A stretch of DNA of 57,963 nucleotides, filler included, from Jimgerdemannia flammicorona (GCA_003990765.1; 2 parts of 2 records of this genome joined end to end with filler, not necessarily neighbours in it); one strand, 5' to 3'. Positions 1 through 29,334 are shown, counted from the whole stretch's first letter. The notes: a model not told the origin generated them from the letters alone. Numbers and translations are program-made.

Positions 1-1703
1 AAAAAAGCAGAGTGGGGGATGGGGGGGTGGGAAATAAGGGGAGGGGTGAGAAGTGAAGTTCGGACCTCAAGCCAATCAACCAAACTCAATTGAGCAGTTA
101 TAACATCAATAGGGTATTCTTTCCTGTGAACCAGGAATTTGGCCAAAAACCAACACTCATCAAGCCAATCACGGCGAGATGAGCAGAGTAGTGAAAGGCG
201 GTGGGCTTCGTTCACAATGCATAGACGGAGCGTCTTCCTAGGATGATTGCTCAACCAGTCGAAAAACTGAGTACTACGCGGAAATTTAGCGAAGCGGCCT
301 GTGCGGAATGGTGCGACTTGGATTTCTAGGTCTAAGTAATGGCACGGTCCGGCGGACAAGACTTCCCATTCGATACGATGGTGTGGAGGGTACACGGCAG
401 CAAAGATCGAGGCCAAGTCCATGATCACGGGCGTAAAGACAATAAGATCATCAATATACTGGCGGAACTTTAGCCCGGCAGCGACGGCTCGGCTAAGCAG
501 ATGATCGGGTGCTTGCAAGGTATACAGCTCATGAGCAAAACCGACAAGATTGGCAAGATCCGGAGCACAATTAGTGCCCATAGCAATACCAGTCACAGAG
601 CGGAAGGAACTGATGGCAGATGTAAATGTCGTATGAGTTATGACTATGCGGACAAGGCCAAGAACGGCTTCAAGCGGCAAAGAGCCAGGGGGGAAGGCCA
701 CTGTCAACAAAAAGGTGAGGCAGTCAATGCACTCATCTAATGTGATCCTGGTATAGAAGGCGGCGAAATCTCCAGTAGCAATGTATAAACAATCTGACAC
801 GTCAAGGTAATCCGAACGAACCAATTGAAGCAGTTCGAGTATATCACATAGAGGTGAATAACGAGAGTAACCCACATTATGGTGCAGATGGGCCGACCAC
901 AGATGGAGAAAGCGAGATAGGAAATGCGAAATCTCAGTCGTGGGAGAGTTAAACGCACCAACGATAGGGCGCCATACCACGCGAGCCCCTTTGTGTACCT
1001 TGGGCAGAGCATGAAACATGGGTAGCTTACAATCGATGGGCTCCATGAGGTGTTCCCAAATCGGCATATAATTATGATCGCCGATGCAGAATTCGAGTAG
1101 ACCAAGAAGGTCCAGCCTCACTGATTCCTTAACATTATCAATCGTAGAGGGATCATTCACGTACGCAGGATCATGAAGGAGGGACCGAAGACCATCAAGA
1201 TAAAGAGTGCGCGGTATAATGGCGAACCCCAGATTTTTGTCGGTAAGACAGACAGTGAAGTCATCATGAGTACGGACACCTTTAAGAAGGCGGCGGAACT
1301 TCTTCAGTACAAGCGCGCCAGACACATTCGTCGTGGGTCAGACAGCTTGATTCAAAGCGGCACTCATATGGAGCATAATTTGCATATTTTCCATACAGTG
1401 TGGCAGTCGCCATTTAGATGGCACCCAGGCGGAGATCTCCGGGACGTCATCAGGATTACCCATAGAGGTCCAGAAGGTGGCAAGGTCGAGACGCTGTTGG
1501 AACGACGACAACGAAATCGGGTCGATGGTACTGTTCATCGATGCCGACCCGGGGAGAACGAACTTAGGGCCAAAGTTCAGCATATACGTGAGCTCAGGGG
1601 TAAGCCAAGGTGGAGGTATATCGGTAACAAAGCCCTCCTCGGTAAACATCCAAAACCGAGGGACAAAAAACTGACTTAAGCAGGAACCGGGAAGAGAAGA
1701 CAT
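1..1703 (-). pseudogene. Penelope-type reverse transcriptase, left copy, partial
   Basis: Motifs LNFGPKF, DKNLG, LPKVHK..RPIV, GIAMG, RQYIDDL, YLDL and SNHP. In-frame TGA at 1338-1340. Confidence 0.88.
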
Positions 1704-1813
1704 GAAGGCAAAATCCTCAATTGGTGTCGAGGCCGCTACCCCACGTAGAATGGGGACATCGGGGCCAAACCACGCTGCCAGGAAGTCATATAAGACTTCC
1801 GGGCTGGGGACCT

Positions 1814-2974
1814 CTAGTTTTTTGATGCTAGAGGGCAGGCATCGCCAGCATTATGCTAGACAACATGACGTTTCGCGGCAGTACACTCGTTGCACTGTAG
1901 TACAAACGCCCTGGCGGCGCTCTTAGATGAGCGGCTCGAAGTCGATGAGTGGCTGGTCCTGGTAGAAGCAGAAGAAACGGACGGGGAAGGTGAAGCCTTA
2001 TGCGCTTGCTTGACCCCTTTTACAGAACCCTCCATCACAGCGGGGGCTAGGGGGCAAGGACCCCGGTGGGCCTTTATAGGCACACCAAGGCGTCCAGAAC
2101 AGCTATGGCAGTTCGGCACAACAGAGGCCGAGGTCACCTTCACCGCCTTCCCCTTTCCTGCAGCCCCCGCAGGCGTGACAGTAGAGGGTAGGGGGGTGGG
2201 GATGCTCTTTTTTGGTCGGGCGGAACCAGCGGCAGCAGAAGCAAATGTGCGTTTGGCACCCGGAGTAACGATCTCGGGGCGCTTCCCAAGCTCCTCAACC
2301 ATGGCTTTGCGGGCGGCGGCAGAAATCCCATCTTGCAGGGAGAAGGATGCAGGGGCTGTCGGGTGGACGGTGGCGGCAGTGGCTTTGGCAGCAGCGGCGG
2401 TGGCGAGACGGCGAGACTGATGCATGACAACGTCAAAACCACGGAACAAGAACAAGTTCATCTTGGCCCAGTCAGTGGCAGCGAGGGTAGCGATATTCTT
2501 GCTAACCCCCAGAGTGATATCAACGGATACGCCAAAAAATTGGTAAGCATCGGAAGAACCACCCAAGGCCTTGTCGATTTTAGCACGCTGGTCCTTAGCA
2601 TGCTGGGCGGTGGCTTCTTGATCAGAAACAGCAGCCTCGATCGCGGCAGTGGCACAGCACTTAGCTTCTGCCGAAGCAGTAGCAAGGGCGGCATCATGCT
2701 GCTCCTCAGGTAGGAGGGCGATGGTAGTGGCTACCTTCTTGGAGGGAGTAAACCTCCAATCGGCAACCTGGGCCCGTAAGAACTCGGCATGGCGTTCCTT
2801 CGCGGCGGTGACCTCAAGGGCAGAAAGCACTCCGGTGCAAGCAGCACGGAAGTAAGCGGGGACCTCGGCAGATGCAGCAGCAACATAGGCTGCAAGGTTG
2901 TCGAACTCCGCCAAATCAGCGAAGGAAGCTTTGGAGATGGCAGCATCGCTATCTACATTCATATTATCTGTCAT
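1814..2974 (-). pseudogene. ORF1 of the Penelope-like element (Ala-rich helical N-terminus, two CxxC..H..C motifs)
   Basis: 372-aa ORF ending at a TAG where the right copy has TGG. The consensus continues WHNAGDACPLASKN*. Confidence 0.75.
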
Positions 2975-4182
2975 GTTGTGTATTATAAAACGAGTAGATA
3001 ATAGCGGAAGAGTTTAGAGCGAGATGTGATACTGTTACGGCAGATATGAAGGTCGGCGGTAAAAGGTCAAACAGTTATGAAAAGCTTATGTGAATTTTCA
3101 CGACGGAACAGAAAGTGGAATAAAGTGTTTTCCGAAGCAAGGTGCAATAGATCTGCAACCTGCTCACGGCACCGCAGTTTGTGATGGTCTTTATTTAAAT
3201 TTGAGAACAAAGTTCGGATAAACAAAGACATGGATCTAACCCCGGAATTCCGGAATCGGATAGGTGCATAAGTACCCGAACCTTGCCCCGATCCAAACAA
3301 AGGTCTGAATCGGGCTTCGTCAATCTACACACGTGACGGGCCATTAAAAACCCGATATAGTAACAATCGGGAAAAGGTACCGGTCATGTGATCTAATGTT
3401 ACACAATCAGTAAACAATGCCAAAAACGGAACTAGACCAATGACGCAACACATGTTATCACATGATTGTCACTTATAGGTTTAAAAACCTAAAAATCATC
3501 AGCACCCGAAGGCGCAGGCGTCAGGCCTAGAGCCTTGTGACCGGAGCGGAGTAGAGCCTCGACACCGGAGCGAGCAAAGTGAGCAGAGGTAGACAGGCAT
3601 CACGGAGCATAGGTATACAGGCGTCAGGCCTAGAGCCTCGCGCCAGAGGTTGTCCAGCGATTTTTCGCGTTTTTAAACCTATAAGTGACAATCACGTGAT
3701 AACACGTGTTGCGTCATTGGTCTAGTTCTGTTTTTGGCATTGTTTACTGATTGTGTAACATTAGATCATGTGACCGCTACCTTTTCCTGATTGTTACTAT
3801 ATCAGGTTTTTAATGGCCCGTCACGTGTGTAGATCGACGAAGCCCGATTCAGACCTTTGTTTGGATCGGGGCAAGGCTCGGGTACTTATGTACCTATCCG
3901 ATTCCAGAATTCCGGGGTTAGATCCATGTCTTTGTTTATCCGAACTTTGTTCTCAAATTTGAATAAAGACCATCGCAAACTGCGGTGCTGTGAGCGGGTT
4001 GCCGATCTATTGCACCTTGCTTCGGAAAACACTTTATTCCGCTTTCTGTTCCGTCATGAAAATTCACATAAGCTTTTCATAACTGTTTGACCTTTTACCG
4101 CCGACCTTCATATCCGCTGTAACAGTATCACGTCTCGCTCTAAACTCTTCTGCTATTATCTACTCATTTTATAATACACGAC

Positions 4183-5342
4183 ATGACAGATAATATGAAT
4201 GTAGATGGCGATGCTGCCATCCCCAAAGCTTCCTTCACCGATTTGGCGGAGTTTGACAACCTTGCAGCCTATGTTGCTGCCATGTCTGCCGAGGTCCCCG
4301 CTTACTTCCATACTGCTTGCACCGGAGTGCTTTCTGCCCTTGAGGTCGCCGCCACAAAGGAATGCCGCACCGAGTTCTTACGGGCCCAGGTTGCCGATTG
4401 GAGGTTTACTCCCTCCAAGAAGGTAGCTGCTACCATCGCCTTCCTACCTGAGGAGCAGCATGACGCCGCCCTTGCTACTGCTTCGGCAGAAGCTAAGCAC
4501 CGTGCCACTGCTGCGATCGAGGCTGCTGTTTCTGATCAAGAAGCCGCCGTCCAGCATGCTAAGGACCAGCGTACTAAAATCGACAAGGCCTTGGGTGGTT
4601 CTTCCGATGCTCACCAATTTTTTGGCGTATCCATTGATATCACTCTGGGGGTTAGCAAGAATATCGCTACCCTTGCTGCCACTGACCAGGCCAAGATGAA
4701 CTTGTTCTTGTTCCATGGTTTTGACATTGTTGTGCATCAGTCTCACCATCTCGCCACCACCGCTGCTGCCAAAGCCGCTGCCGCCGCCATCCACCCGACA
4801 GCCCCTGCATCCTCCTCCCTGCAAGATGGGATTTCCGCCGCCACCCGCAAAGCTGTGGTTGAGAAGCTTGGGAAGCGCCCCGAGATCGTTACTCCGGGTG
4901 CCAAACGCACATTTGCTTCTACTGCCGCTGGTTCCACCCGACCGAAAAAGAGCGTCCCCACCCCCCTACCCTCTACTGCCATGCCTGCGGGGGCTGCAGG
5001 AAAGGGGAAGGCAGTGAAGGTGACCTCGGCCTCTGTTGCGCCGAACTGCCGTAGCTGTTCTGGACGCCTTGGTGTGCCTACAAAGGCCCACTGGGGTCCT
5101 TGCCCCCTAGCCCCTGCTGTGATGGAGGGTTCTGTAAAAGGGGTCAAGCGAGCGCGTAAGGCTTCGCCTTCCCGTCCGTTTCTTCTGCTTCTACCGGGAC
5201 CAGCCACTCGTCGACTTCGAGCCACTCATCTAAGAGTGCCACCAGAGCATTTGTACCACAGTGCAACGAGTGTACTGCCACGAAATGTCATGTCGTCTGG
5301 CATAATGCCAGTGATGCCTGTCCTCTAGCGTCAAAAAACTAG
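4183..5342 (+). pseudogene. ORF1 of the Penelope-like element, right copy
   Basis: Collinear with the left ORF1. A 1-nt deletion near 5171 shifts the frame. Confidence 0.75.
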
Positions 5343-5452
5343 AGGTCCCCAGCCCGGAAGTCTTATATGACTTCCCGGCAGCATGGTTTGGCCCCAATGT
5401 CCCCATTCCACGTGGGGTAGCGGCCTCGACACCAATTGAGGATTTTGCCTTC

Positions 5453-7345
5453 ATGTCTTCTCTTCCTGGTTCCCGCTTAAGTCAGTTTTTCATCCCTCAG
5501 TTTCGGATGTTTACCGAGGAGGGCTTTGTTACCGATATACCTCCACCTTGGCTTACCCCCGAGCTCATGTATATGCTGAACTTTGGCCCTAAGTTCGTTC
5601 TCCCCAGGTCGGCATCGATGAACAGTACCATCAACCCGATTTCGTTGTCATCGTTCCAATGGCGTCTCGACCTTGCCACCTTCTGGACCTCTATGGGTAA
5701 TCCTGACGACGTCCCGGAGATCTCCACCTGGGTGCCATCTAAATGGCGACCACCGCACTGTATGGAAAATATGCAAATTATGCTCCATATGAGTGCCACT
5801 TTGAATCAAGCTGTCTGACCCATGACAAATGTGTCCAGCGCGCTTGTACCGAAGAAGTTCCGCCACCTTCTTAAAGGCGTCCGTACTCATGATGACTTCA
5901 CTGTCTGTCTTACTGACAAAAATCTGGGGTTTGCCGTTATACCGCACACTCTTTATCTCGACGGTCTTCGGTCCCTCCTTCACGATCCTGCGTACGTGAA
6001 TGATCCCTCTACGATTGATAACGTTAAGGAATCAATGAGGCTGGACCTTCTTGGTCTACTCGAATTCTGTATCGGCGATCATAATTGTATGCCGATTTGG
6101 GAACACCTCATGGAGCCCATCGATTGTAAGCTACCTGTGTTTCACACTCTGCCCAAGGTACACAAAGGGGCTCGCATGGCATAGCGCCCTATCGTTGGTA
6201 CGTTTAACTCTCCCACGACCGAGATTTCACGTTTCCTATCTCGCTTTCTCCGTCTGTGGTTGGCCCATCTGCGCCATAATGTGGGTTACTCTCGTTATTC
6301 ACCTCTACGTGATATGCTTGAACTGCTTCAAATGGTTCGTTCAGATTACCTTGATGTGTCAGATTGTTTATATGTCGCTACTGGAGATTTTGCCACCTTC
6401 TACACCAGGATCACATTAGATGAGTGCATTGACTGCCTCACCTTTTTGTTGACGGTGGCCTTCCCCCCTGGCTCTTTGCCGCTTGAAGCCATTCTCGGCC
6501 TTGTCCGTATAGTTATGACTCGTACGACGTTTACATCCGCCATCGGTTCCTTCCACTCTGTGACTGGTATTGCTATGGGCACTAATTGTGCTCCGGATCT
6601 TGCCAATCTTGTTGGTTTTGCTCATGAGCTATGCGCCTTGCAAGCGCCCGATCATCTGCTTAGCTGAGCCATCGCTGCCGGGCTAAAGTTCCGCTGATAT
6701 ATTGATGATCTTATTGTCTTTATGCCCGCGATCATGGACTTGGTCTCGATCTTTGCTGCCATGTACCCTCCGCACCATCATATCGAATGGGAAGTCTTGT
6801 CCGCTGGACTGTGCCATTACTTAGACCTGGAAATCCGAGTCGCACTGTTCCGCACAGGCTGCTTCGCTAAATTCCCACATAGTACTCAGTTTGTCGACTG
6901 GTTGAGCAATCATCCTAGGAAGACGCTCCATCTATGCATTGTGAATAAAGCCTGCCGCCTTTTACTACTCTGCTCATCTCGCCATGATTGGCTTGATGAG
7001 TGTCGGTTTTTGGCCGAATTCCTGGTTCACAGGAAAGGATACCCTATTGATGTTGTAACCACTCAATTGAGTTTGGTTGATTGGCTTGAGGTCCGAACTT
7101 CACTTCTCACCCCTCCCCTTATTTCCCACCCCCCCATCCCCCACTCCACTTTTCCTCCCCTGTTGCTTGTCGTCCAATACGACACAGCCCGATGGCTACA
7201 TCAACAGCCCGACAAGACTCTACGTACCGCTTTGCTTCGTTTTGGTTTCCCTGTGACCGCCCGATGACCAATCATCGCCCGGAAGAACAGTTTTACCATC
7301 CTTAATGCCGTCTCAAATACCAGCTTCGCTCTAAGTTCTCCTTGA
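5453..7345 (+). pseudogene. Penelope-type reverse transcriptase (~630 codons, several in-frame stops)
   Basis: One frame throughout: GPKF, DKNLG, LPKVHK, GDFATFYT, GIAMGTNCAPDLANL, YIDDL, YLDLEI, SNHP, GYP. Stops are consistent with CGA>TGA and TGG>TAG changes. Confidence 0.92.
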
Positions 7346-7375
7346 AGGCCACACTGCTAGTACGTGCCGTGCGAT

Positions 7376-8073
7376 GTTTAAAAACGCGAAAAATTGCCGG
7401 ACAACCTCCGGCGCGATGCTCTAGGCCTGACGCCTACATACCTATGCTCCGTGATGCCTGTCTACCTCCGCTCGCTTCGCTCGCTCTGGTGCCGAGGCTC
7501 TACTCCGCTCCGGTCATGAGGCTCTAGGCCTGACGCCTGCGCCTTTGGGTGCTGACAATTTTTAGGTTTTTAAACCTATAAGTGACAATTACGTGATAAC
7601 ATGTATTGTGTCATTGGTCTAGTTCTGTTTTTGGCATTGTTTACTGATTATGTAACATTAGATCACATGACCGGTACCTTTTCCCGATTGTTACTATATC
7701 GGGTTTTTAATGGCCTGTCACGTGTATAGATCGATGAAGCCCGATTCAGACCTTTGTTTGGATCGGGGCAAGGCTCGGGTATTTATGCACCTATCCGATT
7801 CCAGAATTCCGGGGTTAGATCCGTGTCTTTGTTTATCCGAACTTTATTCTCAAATTTGAATAAAGACCATCGCAAACTGCGGTGCCGTGAGCGGGTTGCA
7901 GATCTATTGCACCTTGCTTCGGAAAACACTTTATTCTGCTTTCTGTTCCATCGTGAAAATTCACATAAGCTTTTTATAACTGTTTGACCTTTTACCACCG
8001 ACCTTCATATCCGCCGTAATAGTATCACATCTCGCTCTAAACTCTTCCTCTATTATCTACTCATTTTATAATA
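7376..8073 (+). repeat. 3' terminal repeat: IR-bounded cassette (7376-7575) plus pseudo-LTR body
   Basis: Reverse complement of about 2981-3678. The body also repeats 3669-4176 directly. Confidence 0.9.
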
Positions 8074-8095
8074 AAAAAAAATAAAAAAAAAAAAA

Positions 8096-8269
8096 TCTTG
8101 TGTTCTGTGACTTCGTATTGACTCAGCTTTGTGTGCTGTGACTTTGGTTTAACTCAGCTTTGTGATCAAACAAGTGATTTCCAGATTTATTCAGAGGTCA
8201 CGTGTGATTTCAGTGGCTTGTTCAGAGGGTGACATGTAATTTCAGTGGCTTAGAGGTTGTGTGCTTACA
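8096..8269 (-). mobile_element. 5' end fragment of a family-C LTR, truncated by the Penelope-like element
   Basis: Matches about 15692-15865, including the gcttaca terminus. Confidence 0.85.
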
Positions 8270-8393
8270 GTATACCTATCAGAACTCTTGCTTGATGCTA
8301 TAGTGATAGTACTTTTTCTCCTAGTTGTGTCAAAAACTATTGCTTGAAGTTTTGTGTAATATGAATTATACAGAAGAAAGGATGCCTGTATAA

Positions 8394-8860
8394 TGTGACG
8401 GTATAGCTGAATTAGGAAGAAGGAAATAGGAAATAGATACTTGATCACACCCATTTCCAAAGTAGTATAGCTTTATAGTTAGTAGTTCTTGATTTCGACA
8501 TTGTCTAAATTCTTAGACATTATCCAAATCAAACATCCCGATTTAGTATAGCATTTAGACATTATCCAAATATTTCGACATTGTCTAAATGACTCATAAC
8601 TTAGCTGTGTAACTCAGTAGCCATCTCATAGCTAGCAAACTTGTATAAATAACCCAATATCTTCGAGTGAATAAACCTCAGATTGAAATAGTTCAAAGTA
8701 AAGAGATAGTAAAGGAACTAGTAAGCCTGTGGGCAGATACACTTCGAACTCACCCACCCTCCCCCACAACTTCAAGAGACTCTGCGAGAGTCAGAACAGT
8801 CAAGTTTTCAAGATACAGAAATCCGACATACTTTCAAGAGTAAGTGCCCACTACATTATA
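8394..8860 (+). repeat. Family A 5' LTR
   Basis: Direct repeat of 16707-17173. TG start; the CA end is mutated to TA. Contains tataaata and aataaa. Confidence 0.93.
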
Positions 8861-8912
8861 ACTTGGTGCCCATTGGCTGGTGATTCAAGATAAATTTCTC
8901 ACCTTCAAGCTG
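8861..8912 (+). promoter_or_regulatory. Primer-binding site and conserved leader
   Basis: TGG-initiated tggtgcccattggctgg 3 nt after the LTR. The same block occurs at 35247, 46676(-) and 55761. Confidence 0.75.
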
Positions 8913-8979
8913 AACAATGAACAACCACTACTATCTGAACAACCATACAAACCGAGCCCCAATACCCAGACAAGATAGA

Positions 8980-11900
8980 TATGAGACCACCAGTATTCCA
9001 TGGATATACCTCAGATAAATCAATTATCACCTTCATTGACAATTTCAAGTAGTATGCTGCTGTAAGGACTCTGACAGTAGCACAGCAAGTAGCCCTCATG
9101 CCCTTCAGCCTACGAGGCCCTGCCAGAGCAGCATTCACAGCTGCAACCTATGCAGAAAATGATGCCGATGCCATACTGACAGCACAGAAGACCTGGCTCC
9201 GAAATACATATTACACAGACGAGATCAAGCAAGCCCTAAAGGATCAGCTCAACACAATATGCCAAGGAATGAGCGAGGATCCAAACACATTCTATACTAG
9301 AATTCGATATCAGATAATCCTTGCAGATTATGCTGCTGCCATCCGAGATCAAGTAGCCGAAGCAACCTTCATAAAAGGAGTCCATCCAGAAATAGCCATG
9401 GCCATCCACTCATCACCAGTGATTCTGGATCTACCACAGAAGGTCACCTATGCTCAGTGATACTGGATAGTGAGACACCCACAAGACCATACAATGGAGA
9501 GAGTTACAGGAGTCAGAATCAAGGCACCCAAGGCAACCAGTGTGATCTCCACCACAATGATCAATTGAAACACACCTCAGCCAAAAGCTACAGAGCAGCA
9601 AAAGAACAGTGACCCTATGGAGGAACTTGCCAAAAGATTTGCTAAAATGACTGCCCATCTGGGAGATATGGTAAAGGAAATCTGAGGAAGAGATTACTGC
9701 CCTGTTCAGAAGTTTGCCGCCACCTCAGACAAGAAGAAAGGTACCTGCTACAGCTGTGGAGAAGAAGGCCACTACTCCTACAAATGTATGAGTGAAACCA
9801 AATGCAAGACTCAACCAAGCAATGTCACACGAAACAAGGAGCAGGCCAATACAATCATCTTTGAAGAAATCGGAGAATCCGATGAAGAGGAATGGGAGGC
9901 CTATCCTGCTCAGACCACCAAGAAGGATGCTCACAAAGAACCCTACAAGAGACCGCCAGGAAGACCCAAGAAGAACCCAGTGGAAAAGTAGATGGAAACT
10001 GCCACAGAAAGTCAAGCCGAAGAGATGGACCAAGATATTGAGCTGGAGCAAGCAGTTCAAGATATCATTCAAGAAACTACTCCAGCCAGTGAAGGGGAAA
10101 AAGAAAAGAAGCTTCGTAAGATCAAGACCTTCAAATATGATATCTTCAAGGATCTCAGTCAACAAAAGGTCAATGCAACCTTTGGTCAGCTCGCAGAAAT
10201 CCCAATATTCAGACAGCAAATGAGGTTTAGACTTGCCAAAACAACCAAGGAACAAGGATGGAAGATAACCAAGGCCAATAATGTTCAAGAGGACTCAGGA
10301 GAAGAAAGTGAGGACAATCACAAAACCTCTGCTTATGCAACATACCAAATTGAGGATCGAGTCTTTAAAGCCATCATTGACACAGGAGCAGGAGGATGTC
10401 TCCTCAGTAAGAAGGCAGCAGACCACCTAGGTTGGGATGTGGAAGAAGCAACTAAGCTAGTATTTGTCACAGCCAATGGCACAAGAGCCACACCTCTGGG
10501 AAAGATCTGAGATGTTCCCATCAAGATTGGAGGAACAACAATCCCAGTAGATGTAATTGTAACCAATGCCACCAACTATGACATCCTCATCAGCAATTAA
10601 TGGCTTTACAAAGCCAAGACAGTAATTGATCTCAATACTCAAAAGATGCAAATCACCTACCAGGGACAGAAGATACGAATTCCCATCAACATCAACAAAG
10701 GAGTCCTACCTGATATGGAGGAAAAAGAGAGTGAGCAAGAGGAAGCTTATATGGTGACTACCCCAAAGAAGAAGAAAGTCAGATGGATGAGTGAAGAAGA
10801 ATGGTGCAAGAAGATTGCAAAAGGCTATGCCACACAAGGAGTCTGTCCTCATGGAATCAAGATGTACTGTATGGAGCATATCAATGATTGCTACCAGTAC
10901 ACCATCAGAACCAGGAAGATCTACCAGAAAAGAAGCCAGAAAGCTCTCGAAAAACAGATCAGAGAAGAAGAGAAGGAGGAAGATAACGAACCACCAGCCC
11001 TCCTGGAGGATAGTGATGATGAAGAAGAAATCAAGGTCAAGATTCAAAAGATCCACCCTGATGCAGTCTTGCTAGAATATAAGTCAGAAAATGCAGCTGG
11101 AATGGACATCGCTATAGTAGAAGAAACTGTACTGGAACCCCAGATAACCATCCTACTCACAACTGGACTAGAGATGACCATCCCAAAGGATCATGTCAGG
11201 ATTCTCAAGACAAGAAGCAGCCTGGCTAGAAGTGAAATCACAATCGAAGGAGGAGTCATTGATTCAGACTATACTGGAGAAATTCTACTCATTGCTAGGA
11301 ACCACAATCCTACAATTCTATTCCCAGTCAAAAAGAAGGACCGATTGGCATAAATATTGATCTTCCCAATCATACAGCCAAGAATCATAGAAGTCAAGAA
11401 TCTGGAGGAGATGAAAAGAGGAAAGAAAGGATTCAGATCGATAGAAAGAAGAGTATTTGCCAGCACCAAGATCACTGAACTTGAGCATAAGAAGGAGGAA
11501 AACATGAGCAAGCACAGTTATATCATTGGAGGCGAATTCCCACTCAAGGAGGAACTCAAGAAAATACTCCACAAATTCGAGGATATTCTTGCCATAGATT
11601 TCAAGGATATCAAGGGAAAGACCCCACACTACTATTATGAGGTAGATACCAGAGACACTGAACCAATTTACCAGAAGGCAAGACCTGTCCTGCCAGCCTA
11701 CCGAGAATGGCTCAGAGAAGAAATCAAGCAGATGGAAGAAGCCAGCATCATCAAAGAAGCCAGTAGCCCCTGGTCTTCACCAGTCATACTAGCCCCAAAA
11801 AAAGGAAGCAAACCTGGAGAATTTGCCCCAAGGCTCTGTATCGACTACAGAAAGCTCAATGTAGTTACCAAGAAGGATCGTCAACCACTACCGCTCATCA

Positions 11901-12966
11901 GTGACATTCTTATAACACTAGGAGACGAAGTACAGTACTACAGCACCCTGGACTTATACTCAGGATTCCACCAAATTGGACTCACAGAAATGGCAAGTGA
12001 AAAGTCAGCCTTCATCACCCCAGACAGAACCTACATCTACCTACGAATGCTATTCGGAATGTACAATACACCAGCAAGCTTTCAGCAAATGATGAACAAA
12101 ATCTTCCACTATGATATGGGAAGATGGATAATGGTCTATGTCAATGATGTAATCATCTACAGCAAGACACCTGAGGAACATCTACAGCACATACAGCAGA
12201 TAATGGAGAGACTAAGACAATATGGCCTTTATATCAAACCCAAAAGTGCAAGTTTGTGGAAATTGAGATCTCCTATCTTGGCCATATCATCAATCGAGAT
12301 GGAACACACATGGACCCCCTCAAAATACAAGCAGTAGCAGCATATTCAAGGCCCACTACTGTCACAGAAGCCCAAGCCTTCATGGGACTTGTCTCCTACT
12401 ATCGCAGATTCATTAGAGGATTCTCCAACATCACAGGCCCAATCTACGAACTCAATAAGAAGGATACCAAGTTCCAGTAGACTGGTAGACAACAAAAAGC
12501 ATTTGACGAACTCAAGGTCAGACTAACTCAGGCACCCATCCTCAGATAACCCAATTGGACCCAAGAATTTATCCTTCAAACAGATGCAAGTGCACAAGGA
12601 CTGGGAGCAGTCCTAGCTCAAAAAGAAGACAAAAAAGAGTATATCATTGCATATCTTAGCCGCAGAACCCAAGGAGCTGAAAAAGAATACGAGTCCTACA
12701 AGTTGGAATGCCTTGCAGTCATCTGGGCTGTGGAAAAGTTCCACTACTATCTGGCCGGAAGACACTTTACCATCCAGACAGACCACTCAGCTCTTACCTG
12801 GCTACTGACAACTAGACAACCCAAGGAAATCTATGCCAGATGGATAATGAAGTTACAAGCCTATAATGTAACCATCATACACCGCCCTGGAAGAACAAAT
12901 TCCAATGCAGATGCTCTCTCACAGATACCTCGAACTACCTCTAACCAACAAATCAATCATGAATAA
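8980..12966 (+). pseudogene. gag-pol of family A: Gag with CCHC knuckle, aspartic protease, dUTPase, RT, RNase H
   Basis: CYSCGEEGHYSYKC; IIDTGA; AAGMDI/RSSLA/GGVIDSDYTGEI; RLCIDYRKLN, YVNDV; TDAS, TDHSAL, NADALS. Confidence 0.93.
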
Positions 12967-13803
12967 GGAGCTCTACTATGGAATCATCACATACCTGAGG
13001 CAGCGAAAGATGCCCCAACATCTGGAAGAATGGACACAAACAATTATCAACAGAACATGGAAACAATTCAAAACCGACAGAGAAATACTGAAGAAAGGAA
13101 AACTACTAGTCATACCAGAACACAAGAAGGAGCAAGTGATGAAATCAGTACACGAACTTGGCCATCTAAGAGGAATGAATACATATGATAAGGCAAGAAG
13201 AACAATATGGTGGCCAGGGATGGAGGAAGATATCAGACAATTTGTCAAAACATGTAATAAATACCAGAAATAGAACAAGACCAATGAAATCAAGCCCCAG
13301 GATCAGCACACATAGAACCAGTACTATTTGCCCATATAGCAATAGATGTAATTGGTCCTCTACCCTTGATCCTGACTGGTAACCGATATATCATTATCAT
13401 CGTAGACCTTTTTACAAAGTGGATAGAAGCAGGACCCCTCAAGGAAGCCAACACACAGTCAATTGCTGATTTCTTCTACAAGGAAATCATCTGCCAGTTC
13501 AAGACCCCAACACAAGTAACTACAGATAGAGGAACAGAATTCATGAACCAGCTCTTTGAGGTTCTCTATAAGAAGTACAAGATCCAGCACATTCAGACCA
13601 CAGCCTATCACCCCCAAGAAAATGGACAAGTAGAAAGAACCAACAAAACCCTCAAGAATATTATTGTCAAGATCTGTGATAACTACGAGAACTGGAATTA
13701 CTATCTGCCAATAGCATTATCTACTCTCCAGGATATCCAATCACAAAGTACCCACTTTACTCCTCAAGAAATGCTGTTCAGAGAAAAATATTCTCAAGGA
13801 ATC

Positions 13804-15865
13804 TGTAAGGTGGTTACTTTTTAGGGTAACCATTACGTAGTTCTAGAAAGGTTTTCTGGATATTCTGGATATTCTGGAAGACCGTTTTCTTATGGTCAAG
13901 ATCAATTTCATATGGAGTACATCCTCTACGCTTATTGATTTCAAGATCGGATTGACGTCTCAACCAAAGTCCTTTTTCGGACTAGTTCTGGATGTTCAGG
14001 ATTTTCTATATTTCAGGAAGTTCAAGAAACTAAGACTAGCTTAGTTGAATTGGCGTATCGCTGCAGACAATACCCAATTAGGAAATTTTATGATGGGGTT
14101 AGAAGTGGGACCTAACAGGGAGCAGATTTACTTAAAAGTGGTTTGTGGGTTATGGAATAAGTTTATTTGTTATTCATGATATTACTATACTAGGAGTATT
14201 AGTGTGAAGGAATATTATGGGGAAGTATTCAGGAATGTTCTTGTGTGTTTGAGTCTGAGATTCTGAGGTCTGGGGGAGGGGGTATTTATACTAGTGAGGG
14301 GCTATCTGGACTATGCTAGATATGGATGTAGCACTAAGTGCTTTGCTGAGTCAGAATGCAGTCACATAGTACAAGTGTGATCTGACATGTCAAGAGATCA
14401 TCTGACTACTGAGTCAGTTTACAGTCACATCGTATAAGGCTAATCTAACTATACTATGACTGCTAGGCTATTTATAGGTTTAGGCACTGTCTGGGTAGTC
14501 TTCGATAACATTACCATCGATTGCATCATCTCTGATGAAGTAGTCATCTAGGAAGAGTGGTTTACAGATTATTTCTCCTTGTTCGCTGAGATAGTAATAC
14601 ATTGGGACTTCATCTCCATTCCACAGGATAGCATCGTCTGTCTCGTAGGCTGGATAAGGTGTTGGTGGGCAAAAGATAGATGTATTGTCTTCGCTTTCAT
14701 CAGATTCACTGTCTGCATACCTTCTATAGGTTATAGCACTATGAGTTGCAGGATTGTAGTAAGCTGGTGGCTGTGGTTCATGTCACTCATACTCAGGTGG
14801 TGGAGTGGTTGGTTCAATCTCGAGGGTTATCTGGAGGTACAAGTTGTGTTCTCTGGTCTCTTCATTGTAGTTGAAGTAGTCAGGGGTAAATGTGGGTTGG
14901 TATTTGTGCCAGTGGTCATTGTCCCAATAAATCTCGTATATTGTTATGAATTGTTGTAAGTTCATTGGTAAAGTTGGCGGAGTGATCAGGGTTGGCAGAG
15001 ATCCTTGGCTAGAGGTCATGTCGGCATCAGAGAGATCATTGTCTTCTGCTTCATCTTCATCGAAGTGGATTATATCATAGATGTCCTTCATGGCATATCC
15101 AACTTGGGACATTTGCAGGATTTGATCATTAGGGTGTGGGAAGGTTCTGTCTGTGGTTTCAACATACTCGAGGTACTTGTGGTTGAGTTCTTGTATCATA
15201 TCATCAATTTGGCCATAGGACAGGGCAGCAACCATTTCGCTGGTAGTAACTCGGAGGCAGGGAATAATAGTGCTGTACTCATAGAAGAGTTCTCGATATT
15301 TGCGGGCGATGAGCTTCTGGTGTTGAGACATCTGGGTAATATCTGTATTATGGTAGTGTTCACCCATATCTTTCAGAAGGCAGCTGATCTGGTAGTAGCT
15401 TGAGATTTGTCCAATTTGGTGGGCCTTGCTAAGCATGTTCAGAGCATTTCATCAGGCTTCCACAAAGTAGAGGGGTGCCAGGCTATGGATATTCATGAGG
15501 GGCAGAGGGGGTGTGGCTTGGTTGACAATGGCATTCCAAATGTCAGCACGGATACGGTTGTAGATCATGGTGGTCATGTTTGTATGTTTGGAAGTTGTGG
15601 TTGTTGTTTGTTTTGGTTCTCTGATTCAATGTGTCTCAGTGCTCGATATATATGCATTTGGTCCTGATTGGTAAGATTTCGTTTGTATAAATCTTGTGTT
15701 CTGTGACTTTGTATTGACTCAGCTTTGTGTGCTGTGACTTCGGTTTGACTCAGCTTTGTGATCAAGCAGGTGATTTCCAGATTTGTTTGGAGGTCTCGTG
15801 TGATTTCAGTGGCTTGTTCAGAGAGTAATGTATAATTTTGGTGGCTTGGAGGTTGTGCGCTTACA
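13804..15865 (-). mobile_element. Family C solo LTR (2062 bp) containing a long ORF
   Basis: tgtaag...cttaca ends with a 5-bp TSD gaatc/gaacc. TATA (~14285) and aataaa (~14165) on the minus strand. No pol. Confidence 0.85.
14480..15577 (-). pseudogene. LTR-encoded accessory protein, family C (~365 aa)
   Basis: Single frame ATG..TAA with three TGA codons, all plausibly CGA. Similar to ORF3 of A and the LTR ORF of B. Confidence 0.75.
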
Positions 15866-16207
15866 GAACCCTATCATCCAATGGAGATGCTGTATGGAAA
15901 TATATGAACATGGAAATATGGAGACTACACCAAATCAGGAAGAAGGCTGAGGATTACATAACCAAGGTGCAGACACTACAATGGAGGAATGCAGAAAAGA
16001 TCCACAAGCTCTTGGAGATTATCAAGATAGGAGACAAGGTCCTGGTGTATCGGAACATGGTAGAAGCTTCATAGTCACGAAAACTGGAGCCCAAGTAGGA
16101 AGAACCTTACCTTGTGCAAGATATAAAAGGGATCACCTTTTGGCTACGAAAACCCTCAGGTACAATAATCCCCACCACCATTCACCAAAACCAACTCAAG
16201 AAATATC

Positions 16208-16669
16208 ATGGCCAGTAACAAAAGTACCATGATGGCACTCAAGATCACTAGTGCTACTCAAAGAGCCATCGAAAGACAATGGTACACCACCGAGCCTCTG
16301 ACCATAGAGCCATACTATGAGAATATTCAGAGTATTGTGCAGACTTATCTCTCTCAGATCTTCCACTTTAGAGCCTATCAATATCGGGCAGAATTCCAAG
16401 AGTACTTCAAGCTTGGATAGGTGCTCAATCAGGATCCAGCAAAGACCAAAGAGGACTGGATTGCCGAGTGTCAACTCTCCCACTCACAGATCACTATTGC
16501 CAACAGGATCCACAAGTTATTCCAAGAAGATGAACCAGCAATAGACCACCTAAGAGGAGTAACCCCCACTGACTTTGAGAAAGTGAGGAGACATCATTGG
16601 GAAACAGTCATGCAGCAAATTGCACAGTACAAGACCATACAGACAGTTGAAGTCTGGGAGTTTGAATAG
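16208..16669 (+). pseudogene. Accessory ORF3 of family A (~153 aa)
   Basis: Two in-frame ORFs joined by one TAG (likely TGG). The ATG overlaps the integrase end. Ends just before the PPT. Confidence 0.75.
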
Positions 16670-16706
16670 ATGCCTCAGAGATGAGACCATCTATTCAGGA
16701 GGAAGT

Positions 16707-17173
16707 TGTAATGGTATAGCCGAATTAGGAAGAAGGAAATAGAGAATAGACACTTGATCACACCCATTCCCAAAGTAGTATAGCTTTATAGTTAGCAGTC
16801 CTTGATTTTGACATTGTGTAAATTCTTAGACATTATCCAAATCGAATATCCCGATTTAGTATAGCATTTAGACATTATCCAAATATTTTGACATTGTCTA
16901 AATGACTCATAACTTAGCTGCATAACTCAGTAGCCATCTCATAGCTAGCAAACTTGTATAAATAACCCAATATCTTCGAGTGAATAAACCTCAGATCGAA
17001 ATAGTTCAAAGCAAAGAGATAGCAAAGGAACTAGTAAGTCTGCAGACAGATATACTTCGAACTCACCCACCCTCTCCCACAACTTCAAGAGACTCTGCAA
17101 GAGTCAGAACAGTCAAGTTTTCAAGATACAGAAATCTGATGTACTTTCAAGAGTAAGCACCTGCTACATTACA
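16707..17173 (+). repeat. Family A 3' LTR
   Basis: TG...CA ends; direct repeat of 8394-8860. Confidence 0.93.
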
Positions 17174-23889: not shown

Positions 23890-23979
23890 GTAAGTAAATA
23901 TGGGATTCGAGTGCTTGTTCTGTGTTGGCCGCTTCAATACCAGATGCTTTACGGGTGTGGTTTGATGTCATATGCGTTC

Positions 23980-24022
<43 letters not shown>

Positions 24023-24069
24023 CTTTTTTGTTTTTTTTTTTTTTTTTTTTTTTTTGTTTTTTTTTTATT

Positions 24070-24108
<39 letters not shown>

Positions 24109-25236
24109 TTTCATGTCTTGGACGTCGATCGTGGTACAAGTTTCAATGATTTTCTATCTCATTCTCTCTCTCTTTCGGTATCTGTTCTCTATGCTTTGTG
24201 TTTGGTTTTTGTTCCTTGTCTTGCCGCATATACCTTTGTGCTGCCGTGTCCTGGGTGTTGGTCGACAAATCGATTCAATCTATCTTTCTGCAATCCCTAG
24301 CCGACTTCGCCTTTTTGTAATTAGTAATATGTTGAAACACGCAAACATTTCCCTCTTTTTACGCTTTGTGGCCATCACTCGCTCTGTTTTTTCTTTCTCA
24401 ACATAAACGCGGACGCCAACTTGTCCTCCCTATAAAGGTACCACACTCAACAGGCCTGCCTAGGAACGTCTATGATGGGCAGGCAAAATCAAACGGGATG
24501 GTATGCGTTGTATCTTGGGTCTGTTTATATAAGCCGCTTTTATCGTTAGGGAGAGGGGGGGGGGGAGCAACTCGAGAGACATTTACAGTCAAATTGCGAT
24601 CTCACCTTTTGGTGGTTTTGTACAATGTGCCCTGTAGATCCAATTCTTTAAATTTATTTAGTAAGTTTGATAATTCAAGAGTTATACAAAAGAGCTATAA
24701 GACTGACGAGTTATTTTCTTTTTTTTAAATTATTATTATAAAAAAATAAAAATAAAAAAATAAAAATAATAATAAAAAAAAATCTTATATTAGACATTCA
24801 TATTATTGATAGTATAATTATTTTTAAAATAAATATTAAAAATTAGAATTTTAGTTTTGGTATTAATCATTATAAATAATTATACTCTTTAGGTTTTATT
24901 TATTTATTTTATAAACTAATATTTATATAAAACTAATAACCCTTAAATACTCAAGAACGCGCACGCCATTTTGAATGGTGCAGCATACCCATCAATTCAT
25001 CCGTCGCCGTCCACTCCCTCTCGAGGATGAAGTGTAGAGAGCCAAACATGGTAACAACCTCCTCACACCTAGACAATGTTGAATTGCATCACACAGTATC
25101 AAACAATGGCTAATTATACTATCGTATGATATAAATGTCTAATGAGGGATAGAACCGTTTCTAAAAGAATAGTTTACTTTGAGCTGATTTCATCGAGCTC
25201 AACTCACTTCTGCGTTGCCAAGAGTGACGACTATAG

Positions 25237-28941: not shown

Positions 28942-29041
28942 NNNNNNNNNNNNNNNNNNNNNNNNNNNNNNNNNNNNNNNNNNNNTTAATTAATTAANNN
29001 NNNNNNNNNNNNNNNNNNNNNNNNNNNNNNNNNNNNNNNNN
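28942..29041. other. Artificial contig linker
   Basis: 44 N + TTAATTAATTAA (stops in all six frames) + 44 N = 100 nt. Confidence 0.95.
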
Positions 29042-29095
29042 AAAAAAAAAAAAAAAAAAGGAAGAAAAGAAAATAAAGGATGGAGTCCAAGTGAC

Positions 29096-29192
<97 letters not shown>

Positions 29193-29251
29193 AAAGAAAA
29201 AAAAAAAAAATAGAAGGGAGTATTGTTAATAAAGGATGGAGTAAAAGTGAC

Positions 29252-29330
<79 letters not shown>

Positions 29331-29334
<4 letters not shown>

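Follow-up and report, generated by a model that had tools for sequence, protein, structure and literature searches.

A head-to-head dimer of a nuclease-less Penelope-like element in Jimgerdemannia flammicorona, with its inversion junction at the foot of the element's own hairpin

The stretch of DNA analysed here (57,963 nucleotides from Jimgerdemannia flammicorona, GCA_003990765.1; the window) opens with a large palindrome formed by two inverted copies of a Penelope-like element (PLE). The palindrome is real, old, methylation-decayed DNA, and its inversion junction falls precisely at the foot of an inverted repeat that belongs to the element itself and closes a hairpin. In the explanation that we favour, and to which we give about an even chance, a single old insertion of this endonuclease-less element was laid down as a head-to-head dimer by way of two converging cDNAs, which became joined at the foot of the hairpin.

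Architecture of the palindrome

By blastn, the inverted arms pair window positions 3669-7153 with 3488-3 at 93.43% identity over 3486 bp, with one indel. A repeat search resolves the pairing into two blocks, 3-1985/5171-7153 at 93% and 1984-3495/3662-5173 at 94%. An earlier reading made from the sequence alone (the sequence-only reading) had described a head-to-head palindrome, and both methods confirm its inverted arms at 3-3488 and 3669-7153. The left arm (3-3478, minus strand; blastn and repeat search) is a copy of the element comprising the 5' repeat segment, ORF1 and the reverse transcriptase (RT) ORF. The window start truncates it at the point corresponding to right-arm position 7153, and about 0.94 kb of predicted outer end, together with the flank, would lie beyond the window; the predicted size of the whole dimer is 9.03 kb.

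The 180-bp centre of the palindrome represents one copy of a module that is also found at 7376-7575. As the sequence-only reading had noted, the centre recurs reverse-complemented in the intact 3' end, where 7376-8073 corresponds to the reverse complement of 3678-2981 at 93.8% (repeat search, blastn). Direct reading of the sequence confines the switch between the arms to a 10-mer at 3669-3678: leftward, the sequence matches the reverse complement of 7376 onwards, and rightward it matches 7576 onwards. This junction 10-mer forms the first 10 nt of the right-arm repeat segment and, read as its reverse complement, also opens the hairpin module; the motif is seen five times in the window, against 0.25 occurrences expected. 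The junction thus falls within the outer 10-bp arm of the inverted repeat, as previously claimed, and the dyad axis of the hairpin, at 3578.5, is the axis of the entire palindrome.

Pseudo-LTRs from partial tandem copies are present, as is an inverted copy adjoining the upstream pseudo-LTR; the PLE literature describes an inverted 5'-truncated copy in this position as typical of the class (PMC8557442). The upstream pseudo-LTR of the right arm (3660-4176, plus strand) is a copy of the last 517 nt of the element and matches 7558-8073 at 94.0% (blastn). The latter interval, also on the plus strand, is the 3'-terminal segment or downstream pseudo-LTR, as delimited by blastn and by a three-copy comparison. 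A TATA-like motif, CTATAAG, is present in it at 7576-7582. At the internal boundary 4176/4177, direct reading shows no A-run ahead of the body. The left arm bears 700 nt of upstream 3' sequence.

The single outer end within the window terminates in an A-run of 8 A, T and 13 A (8074-8095, plus strand). From direct reading and from comparison with the flank repeat's other copy, which begins at 15689, we interpret it as what is left of a poly(A) tail, grading into an A-rich target. The right flank repeat (8093-8270, plus strand) has this other copy at 15689-15866 (90%) and forms the border of an LTR-type element that carries dUTPase and RT; host genes are found 15-20 kb from the element.

Beyond 8095, blastn detected no element sequence anywhere in the window. 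That unrelated DNA follows the outer A-run argues against a nested second insertion. Had two independent insertions occurred, the second copy homing into the hairpin of an older, oppositely oriented one, the displaced remainder of the older copy would be expected beyond the newer 3' end. AT-rich sites within their own pseudo-LTR are possible targets of Penelope-like proteins (PMC11167929), and the junction 10-mer is AT-rich, which would suit such homing. Yet this would require that one copy's 5' end and its target site in the other copy happen to match the two arms of a single inverted repeat, and the three copies of the repeat are equally diverged (see Age of the inversion). We consider two insertions very improbable.

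The hairpin module

The native hairpin module (HP; 7376-7575, plus strand), which lies after the 3' UTR and before the terminal segment, carries a 10+8-nt inverted repeat that closes a rod-like hairpin. Its outer arms, at 7376-7385 and 7566-7575, are respectively GTTTAAAAAC and the exact complement of that 10-mer, and the inner arms are 8 nt long; the imperfect inverted repeat reported in the sequence-only reading to bound the module was found with precisely this sequence. That reading had also called the 180-bp spacer asymmetric. The central segment stands, but it is not simply asymmetric: 7376-7575 folds as a single rod with 71 centre-spanning pairs (RNA fold, -75.8 kcal/mol), the best single fold-back among the 200-nt windows of the unit. 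Measured against shuffles, native HP has a z of -3.2 as RNA and of -2.6 as DNA. The central copy of HP, which is the 200-nt reverse complement of 7376-7575 (3479-3678, minus strand), also folds as a single rod (RNA fold, 69 centre-spanning pairs, -77.6 kcal/mol).

Among 1000 dinucleotide shuffles of the unit, 525 contained a bare 10-nt inverted repeat with a spacing of 50-400 nt and one contained the 10+8 composite. In the real unit, a single 10-nt inverted repeat falls in this range of spacing, and the junction sits on that pair. Pairing between two minus-strand cDNAs from the same element is possible only where the element has inverted repeats, and the presence of one such pair in the unit supports a joining of cDNAs at this point. 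Against such a joining, HP was not among the eight best windows in a GC-corrected stability scan and is no outlier there. A BLAST-based hairpin finder did not pick up the bulged inverted repeat of HP.

In closed metagenome units of relatives, a rod comparable to the 69-71 centre-spanning pairs of the window was present in one of 22 (L075, 69 pairs), and we rejected HP as a clade-wide feature on these grounds. Occurrences of the 10-mer at 2 of 77 loci of relatives (L028, L036) were judged to be due to chance. A long inverted repeat (469 bp, 90.6%) was seen in just one relative, L028, which was rejected as an example of the nuclease-less branch because it carries a domain resembling GIY-YIG (E 1.7e-4; 22.3 bits, cut-off 22.6).

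Coding capacity and classification

The RT open frame of the left arm (3-1337, minus strand; P0001, 441-445 aa, open to the window edge) contains a DKN motif and the YIDD catalytic motif, which appear in translation as 'TDKNLG' and 'YIDD'. DKN is a named PLE marker (PMC13159263), and D29 and K30 are nearly invariant in an alignment of 150 sequences. A HMMER search with P0001 yielded 2642 relatives, and an A1 profile scored 384 bits on the left-arm RT frame; the Pfam profile RVT_1 scored 16.3 bits on P0001 itself, below the cut-off of 29.6. The nearest Atlas clusters are annotated with RVT_1, HTH_animal and DUF8422 and represent rotifers and arthropods, and one relative with 34% identity (P0004) comes from the fungus Racocetra fulgida. 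A profile search against PDB did not single out an affinity to telomerase (group II intron RT 1.5e-6, TERT 0.013) and was not used for classification. The homologous-protein search in 'longer' mode gave no match.

In the right arm, the RT coding region (5315-7267, plus strand) is a single frame broken by in-frame stops into the pieces 5315-5818, 5819-6184, 6185-6667 and 6698-7267. It has no nuclease domain at its end, which lies 108 nt upstream of the hairpin. Nuclease families matched none of the 85 ORFs of at least 45 aa between positions 1 and 8100 at E ≤ 0.05. The closest relatives, P0002 and P0003, likewise end without an endonuclease, and 3 of 56 scanned relatives (P0043, P0087, P0141) have RVT_1 followed by GIY-YIG. 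With RT motifs of the PLE type and no ORF matching a nuclease, the earlier assignment to an endonuclease-less PLE is upheld: the sequence supports classification of the element as a Penelope-like RT element without detectable nuclease.

ORF1 precedes the RT in both arms. In the left arm (1859-3013, minus strand) it comprises 385 aa from stop to stop, is rich in alanine and matched no Pfam family; in the right arm (4183-5328, plus strand) it comprises 381 aa from the ATG.

Searches for hammerhead ribozymes gave no Rfam match at the gathering score in the whole window, nor at E ≤ 1 in positions 1-8300. In the account given in PMC8557442, Naiads are also without canonical hammerheads. A scan of all 57,963 bases for telomere repeats found no (TTAGGG)2 with up to one mismatch, the motif being an assumed one for this organism.

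Age of the inversion

The arms differ at 231 of 3492 sites, by 226 transitions and 5 transversions, with 1 indel; the differences are mostly at CpG and evenly spread. A spectrum so rich in transitions, centred on CpG and with a single indel, indicates that the arms were near-identical at birth and speaks against an artefact of assembly. Inverted contig ends can arise from long-read assemblers, and the palindrome does reach the window start, as a fold-back chimera at a contig end would. However, 231 differences in 3492 sites, 226 of them CpG-concentrated transitions, form a pattern unlike that of read errors or chimeras, and an assembly artefact is hardly credible. RIP-like or other hypermutation was set aside, as the spectrum is CpG-centred and ordinary 5mC deamination suffices. 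The insertion is dead and CpG-decayed.

The three copies of the 517-nt segment are 93.1, 94.3 and 94.4% identical and have 18, 18 and 11 private changes. They are thus equally diverged in a star pattern, as expected if all were made in one event. Further, the divergence between the arms equals that between the two pseudo-LTRs of one arm, so inversion and insertion date from the same time, to within about 1%.

This equality in age bears on the possibility that a single inserted copy was inverted later by the chromosome. If a strand annealed to itself at the inverted repeat after a break or stalled fork beside the hairpin and was then replicated, this would represent a fold-back of the type known from Tetrahymena rDNA, yeast and mammals. 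A short inverted repeat lies exactly on the axis, in agreement with such an event, and the outer end of the left arm is beyond the window, so that the arms could reach into host DNA. The inversion should then postdate the insertion, whereas the two are of the same age within the limit given above, and the event would either have duplicated the whole flank in inverted form or have yielded a dicentric chromosome. We regard a chromosomal fold-back as distinctly unlikely.

Origin of the dimer

In the explanation that we favour, two cDNAs would have been primed from both 3' ends of a single chromosomal lesion and would have grown towards each other. Each arm consists of a full unit with the 3' part of another unit ahead of it, the partial tandem that forms a pseudo-LTR; this would be expected from reverse transcription past one unit on a multi-unit RNA, or from reverse transcription after a strand transfer. 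One cDNA may have crossed the hairpin while the other halted at its foot. Their minus-strand 3' ends would then have paired through the only good inverted repeat of the element, the 10-bp foot of the 200-nt rod hairpin just upstream of the terminal segment, and both, annealed there, would have been completed each on the other. Later, the arms decayed independently by deamination of methylated CpG. The anatomy, the place of the junction, the absence of a nuclease, the CpG decay and the equal divergence of the three repeat copies are direct results; we infer the priming from two ends, the form of the RNA template and the sequence of steps.

Work with a purified Penelope-like protein has demonstrated cleavage and extension of the two target strands, and the protein is modelled as a dimer on multi-copy RNA (PMC11167929). 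This published two-strand extension was obtained with an endonuclease-bearing element, however, whereas the element described here has no nuclease to make two 3' ends. It also counts against two converging cDNAs that the left outer end and flank lie outside the window, which puts a target duplication or two-ended priming out of view, and that the same centre is predicted for a single cDNA that snapped back on itself.

The latter mechanism had been proposed in the sequence-only reading. A minus-strand cDNA would copy through the hairpin, its 3' end would fold onto the hairpin foot and self-prime the second strand, and the resulting hairpin DNA would be unfolded, copied or integrated to give the duplex palindrome. 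The predicted product has the order reverse-complemented unit, hairpin, unit, retains the imperfect hairpin once and switches arms in the perfectly paired last 10 bp, exactly as found; the near-identity of the arms at birth also fits. RT self-priming from a 3'-terminal cDNA hairpin is well documented for HIV-1 minus-strand strong-stop DNA (PMC6088434). For the PLE class the idea of self-priming is not new, having been proposed for the inverted junctions of endonuclease-bearing Penelope elements, where it was inferred from the palindromes at inverted pseudo-LTR junctions (PMC3846280).

While the geometry is precisely that predicted by snap-back, two converging cDNAs annealing through the same arms of the inverted repeat give an identical junction. 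Moreover, a snapped-back cDNA must end exactly at the equivalent of position 7376, which calls for an RNA 5' end or precise trimming there, and the sequence by itself gives no transcription start at that point; its hairpin-capped product would still have to be converted, in additional steps, into a duplex with two arms and a target junction at either side; and a comparable rod hairpin is present in only one of the 22 closed units of relatives. We judge a single snapped-back cDNA to be rather unlikely, and two converging cDNAs, at about even chances, to be the better fit.

Programmed fold-back replication, as proposed in that reading, is not shown: nothing points to a replicative hairpin intermediate, the product is dead and CpG-decayed, and the hairpin is as rare among relatives as stated above. 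It appears unlikely that the family regularly uses the 200-nt terminal hairpin to turn its first-strand cDNA, with hairpin-ended or palindromic dimer DNA as the normal substrate of integration. If it did, this would constitute a step resembling a rolling hairpin in a retroelement, and a way of entering chromosome interiors at breaks without an endonuclease. The hairpin and its 10-bp foot offer a concrete sequence with which self-priming may be told from two-ended priming at the bench.

Comparison with known systems

The tandem and inverted layout of PLEs has been ascribed to the cleavage properties of the GIY-YIG endonuclease (PMC8557442), and fungal and protist endonuclease-deficient elements are said in PMC3846280 not to share this organisation. 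The fungal element in the window is nuclease-less and shows the layout, probably at full length, at one chromosome-internal, not telomeric, locus whose left outer end is outside the window; the position of the inversion is set by the element's own hairpin. Together, these observations point to RT and nucleic-acid structure, not a nuclease, as the makers of the layout.

With canonical endonuclease-bearing Penelope elements, such as Pen2a_Av of Adineta vaga (PMC3846280), whose general layout is given in PMC8557442, the element shares pseudo-LTRs from partial tandems, a PLE-type RT with a DKG/DKN motif, and a palindrome at the inverted junction. In both, an inverted copy abuts the upstream pseudo-LTR; the inverted and direct pseudo-LTRs of Pen2a_Av overlap by 15 bp, with palindromes reported at such junctions (PMC3846280), against an overlap of 10 bp here. 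The element differs in having neither a GIY-YIG endonuclease nor an Rfam hammerhead, in its fungal host and in an outer end formed by an A-run. Its inverted copy spans at least 3.5 kb and is probably full length, in contrast to the short truncated pseudo-LTR described for the canonical elements, and its palindromic module measures 200 nt, compared with the 18-38 bp given for them.

Endonuclease-deficient PLEs of the Coprina/Athena type (PMC8557442; Coprina-1_Alen, PMC13159263) resemble the element in coding for RT only, in the DKN motif, the thumb domain and an upstream ORF, and further in LTR-like repeats (R1/R2 in Coprina-1_Alen, PMC13159263) and a fungal host. Those elements are located at the ends of chromosomes, with telomeric repeats on either side, and contain hammerheads as well as telomere repeats in reverse complement. 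In contrast, the 58 kb studied here have no telomere repeats, and the element ends in an A-run beside an LTR-type element and forms a head-to-head dimer.

Self-priming of HIV-1 cTAR, in the description of PMC6088434, involves a hairpin at the 3' end of the nascent minus-strand cDNA, and the RT extends on its own product, which is the chemistry that a fold-back needs. There it is a dead-end side reaction in vitro that is suppressed by nucleocapsid protein, whereas here an integrated product would be required.

Palindromes guided by short inverted repeats, as cited in PMC2444050 for Tetrahymena rDNA, yeast and mammalian amplicons, likewise have a short spaced inverted repeat on a multi-kilobase axis and keep the spacer once. 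They are described as forming from chromosomal DNA at a free end, with duplication of everything distal. In contrast, the right arm of the palindrome described here ends at the element's own A-run, and its inversion is as old as the insertion.

Structure of the inverted repeat

The window opens with an inverted repeat of 7.15 kb, in which a repeat search found inverted pairs at 3-1985/5171-7153 (1983 nt, 93% complementary), 1984-3495/3662-5173 (1512 nt, 94%) and 2976-3678/7376-8078 (703 nt, 94%). In blastn, the right arm (3669-7153) matched the left arm (3488-3) on the opposite strand with 93.43% identity over 3486 bp, in line with the sequence-only reading, which had the arms meet at 3488/3669. 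The 200-nt hairpin module (HP, 7376-7575) with the terminal segment behind it (7376-8073) matched its left-arm copy (3678-2981) on the opposite strand (93.8%), and the terminal segment (7558-8073) matched its upstream copy in the right arm (3660-4176) on the same strand (94.0%). Besides these three matches, a comparison of 3662-8100 with the window gave only short A-runs.

HP is bounded by an inverted repeat, whose outer 10-nt arms, here called the foot, pair exactly: 7376-7385 reads GTTTAAAAAC, and 7566-7575 is its complement; the inner 8-nt arms come after bulges of 3 and 2 nt. At the centre of the palindrome, the sequence left of 3669 is the reverse complement of 7376 onward and the sequence right of 3678 is that of 7576 onward, so that the arms switch inside the 10-mer 3669-3678. 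This places the junction in the outer arm of the inverted repeat, where the sequence-only reading had put it, and direct reading agrees with the earlier spelling of the centre and of 7376-7575. When the unit was shuffled 1000 times with its dinucleotides preserved, a bare 10-nt inverted repeat with a spacing of 50-400 nt arose in 525 shuffles and the 10+8 composite in 1; the real unit has exactly one 10-nt inverted pair at this spacing, and the junction sits on it. The junction 10-mer is found five times in the window (0.25 expected), four of them within the palindrome structure.

The spacer between the arms, previously described as asymmetric, is itself a long imperfect palindrome. Native HP folds as one rod-shaped hairpin with 71 pairs across its centre (RNA fold, −75.8 kcal/mol) and the central copy (3479-3678) adopts the same fold with 69 pairs, whereas the best unrelated 200-nt window of the unit, at 4885, has 57 and none comes nearer to HP. 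Against shuffles, the fold had a z of −3.2 as RNA (1 of 200 as good) and −2.6 as DNA (0 of 200); in a GC-corrected energy scan HP was no outlier. Its dyad axis coincides with that of the 7-kb palindrome (3578.5). Directly after the HP foot, a TATA-like CTATAAG (7576-7582, also 3679-3685) opens the terminal segment and, by analogy to Penelope, could be a candidate promoter mark in a pseudo-LTR.

Beyond the element's 3′ end, at 8073, comes an A-run (8 A, T, 13 A), which passes into a flank with a second copy at 15689. Since the terminal sequence joins the body directly at 4176/4177, without an A-run, the unit consists of body (4177-7375), hairpin (7376-7575) and a terminal segment ending at 8073. 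In each arm, a full unit follows the 3′ part of a further unit; this part is 517 nt long on the right and, comprising HP and terminal segment, 700 nt long on the left. As judged from sequence, these upstream parts are the partial-tandem pseudo-LTR of Penelope-like elements (PLEs). If the left arm mirrors the right, the complete structure would be about 9.03 kb long; the analysis concerns this single locus, whose left flank lies beyond the window start together with roughly 0.94 kb of the left arm. A nested second insertion is disfavoured as the source of this arrangement because, in blastn against the window, no element sequence returns past 8095.

Divergence and age of the arms

The arms are not identical: 231 of 3492 paired sites differ, by 226 transitions and 5 transversions, and there is one internal indel (1 bp, at 1986/5170). 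The transitions include 78 G/A after C, 58 C/T before G and 51 in which the adjacent base differs as well, which shows that the decay is nearly all from CpG to TpG/CpA. It is evenly distributed (92.2-94.8% identity per 500 bp). An assembly chimera is excluded by the 226:5 ratio of these CpG-type differences, their even spread and the single indel. We conclude that the arms were near-identical when formed and that methylation has acted on the element; the spectrum points to cytosine methylation of the repeat in the host fungus, not to a RIP-like dinucleotide bias. The CpG observed/expected ratio in 3-7153 is still 0.83-0.88.

The 517-nt segment is present in three copies, which are equidistant from one another (93.1, 94.3 and 94.4%), with 18, 18 and 11 private changes and no pair showing a surplus of shared ones. 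The inversion thus has the age of the two pseudo-LTRs within an arm, which makes a later chromosomal fold-back of the kind outlined for Tetrahymena or yeast (PMC2444050) less likely and fits a single event at insertion.

Identity of the element

The reverse transcriptase (RT) frame of the left arm (3-1325, minus strand) is open and translates into a 441-residue protein, P0001; in the right arm the RT is one frame interrupted by stops. ORF1 and RT are mutually out of frame in both arms (4144-5328 and 5315-7267; 1859-3013 and 3-1850), with unequal offsets due to the single 1-bp indel at 1986/5170; the ancestor may have had two ORFs or a frameshift. Against Pfam, P0001 matched only RVT_1, below threshold (16.3 bits, cut-off 29.6). 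HMMER searches of 1.84 billion representatives yielded 2642 relatives at E ≤ 1e-3, the top one with 46% identity. In three of 56 scanned relatives (P0043, P0087, P0141), a C-terminal GIY-YIG domain comes after RVT_1, as in the canonical Penelope architecture; the remaining 53 have RT alone or no domain. Among protein-language-model clusters, the closest are those of RVT_1/HTH_animal/DUF8422 proteins from rotifers, arthropods and nematodes. The relatives also include a fungal sequence, a partial protein from Racocetra fulgida. P0001 carries a DKN motif, and across an alignment of 150 sequences its D29 and K30 hardly vary; a paper on a fungal Coprina element lists DKN among PLE markers (PMC13159263).

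The proposed lack of an endonuclease was upheld: none of 85 ORFs (45 residues or longer) in 1-8100 matched a nuclease family, and the RT frame ends at 7267, 108 nt upstream of HP. The two closest relatives likewise end without a nuclease. The element had no match to hammerhead or other Rfam families. The 57,963-nt window contains no telomere repeats of the motif assumed for the host, and genes for a cullin and an Rrn6-like protein are located 15-20 kb from the element. At the sequence level, these features identify it as an endonuclease-less PLE in the chromosome interior.

Origin of the inverted dimer

The observed order is reverse-complemented unit, one whole hairpin, unit. Minus-strand cDNA, whether two molecules of one element or one molecule with itself, can pair only at an inverted repeat of the element, here the HP foot. 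The snap-back origin of the sequence-only reading, in which one cDNA crosses HP, folds back on the foot and copies itself, yields exactly this order, and self-priming of RT at a hairpin in the 3′ end of a cDNA has been well studied for HIV-1 cTAR, a precedent outlined in PMC6088434. However, the hairpin-capped product of a snap-back has to pass through additional steps before it is a duplex palindrome attached to target on both sides, and the same order results if a pair of cDNAs were to start from two 3′ ends of the target, converge, anneal via the foot and each be completed on the other. For this reason, and because a purified Penelope-like protein extends both target strands (PMC11167929), we favour two converging cDNAs, to which we give about an even chance, and consider a single snap-back rather unlikely.

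Tandem and inverted copies in relatives

Relatives with 21-34% identity are encoded at 77 loci in metagenome contigs. Twenty-two of these are closed units of 3.0-5.5 kb, counted regardless of nuclease content. Exact terminal overlaps of 60-127 bp in 21 of the 22, and a 3.4-fold tandem of 3196 bp at one locus (L036), indicate that these contigs are tandem arrays or circles, which fits tandem master copies or, equally, circular assembly artefacts. Only one of the 77 loci (L028), which has a GIY-YIG-like domain, contains a long inverted repeat; structures of this kind would in any case rarely be assembled in short-read contigs. The rod hairpin, present in 1 of 22 closed units, and the junction 10-mer, present in 2 of 77 loci, are not conserved.

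Endonuclease-bearing Penelope insertions share the pseudo-LTRs, the adjacent inverted copy with short overlap and the palindrome at the inverted junction, the last of which PMC3846280 already reads as a sign of self-priming. The layout itself is thus known, yet our element departs from two published statements: that endonuclease-deficient elements of protists and fungi are without such organisation (PMC3846280), whereas this fungal one has it, and that the layout is due to the cleavage properties of the endonuclease, with endonuclease-minus elements placed at chromosome termini (PMC8557442), whereas here it occurs without an endonuclease and in the chromosome interior.

Other features of the window

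An LTR-type retroelement (8093-17006) abuts the PLE A-run. Its ORFs, a dUTPase (10601-11353) and an RT (11354-12337), are flanked by the repeats 8093-8270/15689-15866 (90%) and 8394-8693/16707-17006 (94%), whose spacings differ by 717 bp. A second dUTPase-bearing retroelement, by appearance, lies on the minus strand at 39950-47146 (ORF 43961-45007), bounded by arrays of one 35-nt tandem repeat (39950-40082, 47019-47146). A 130-nt T-run (23977-24123) and a 233-nt A-rich run (29085-29331) are inverted relative to each other at a distance of about 5 kb, with an Rrn6-like ORF between them; two 44-N blocks (28942-28985, 28998-29041) immediately precede the A-rich run.
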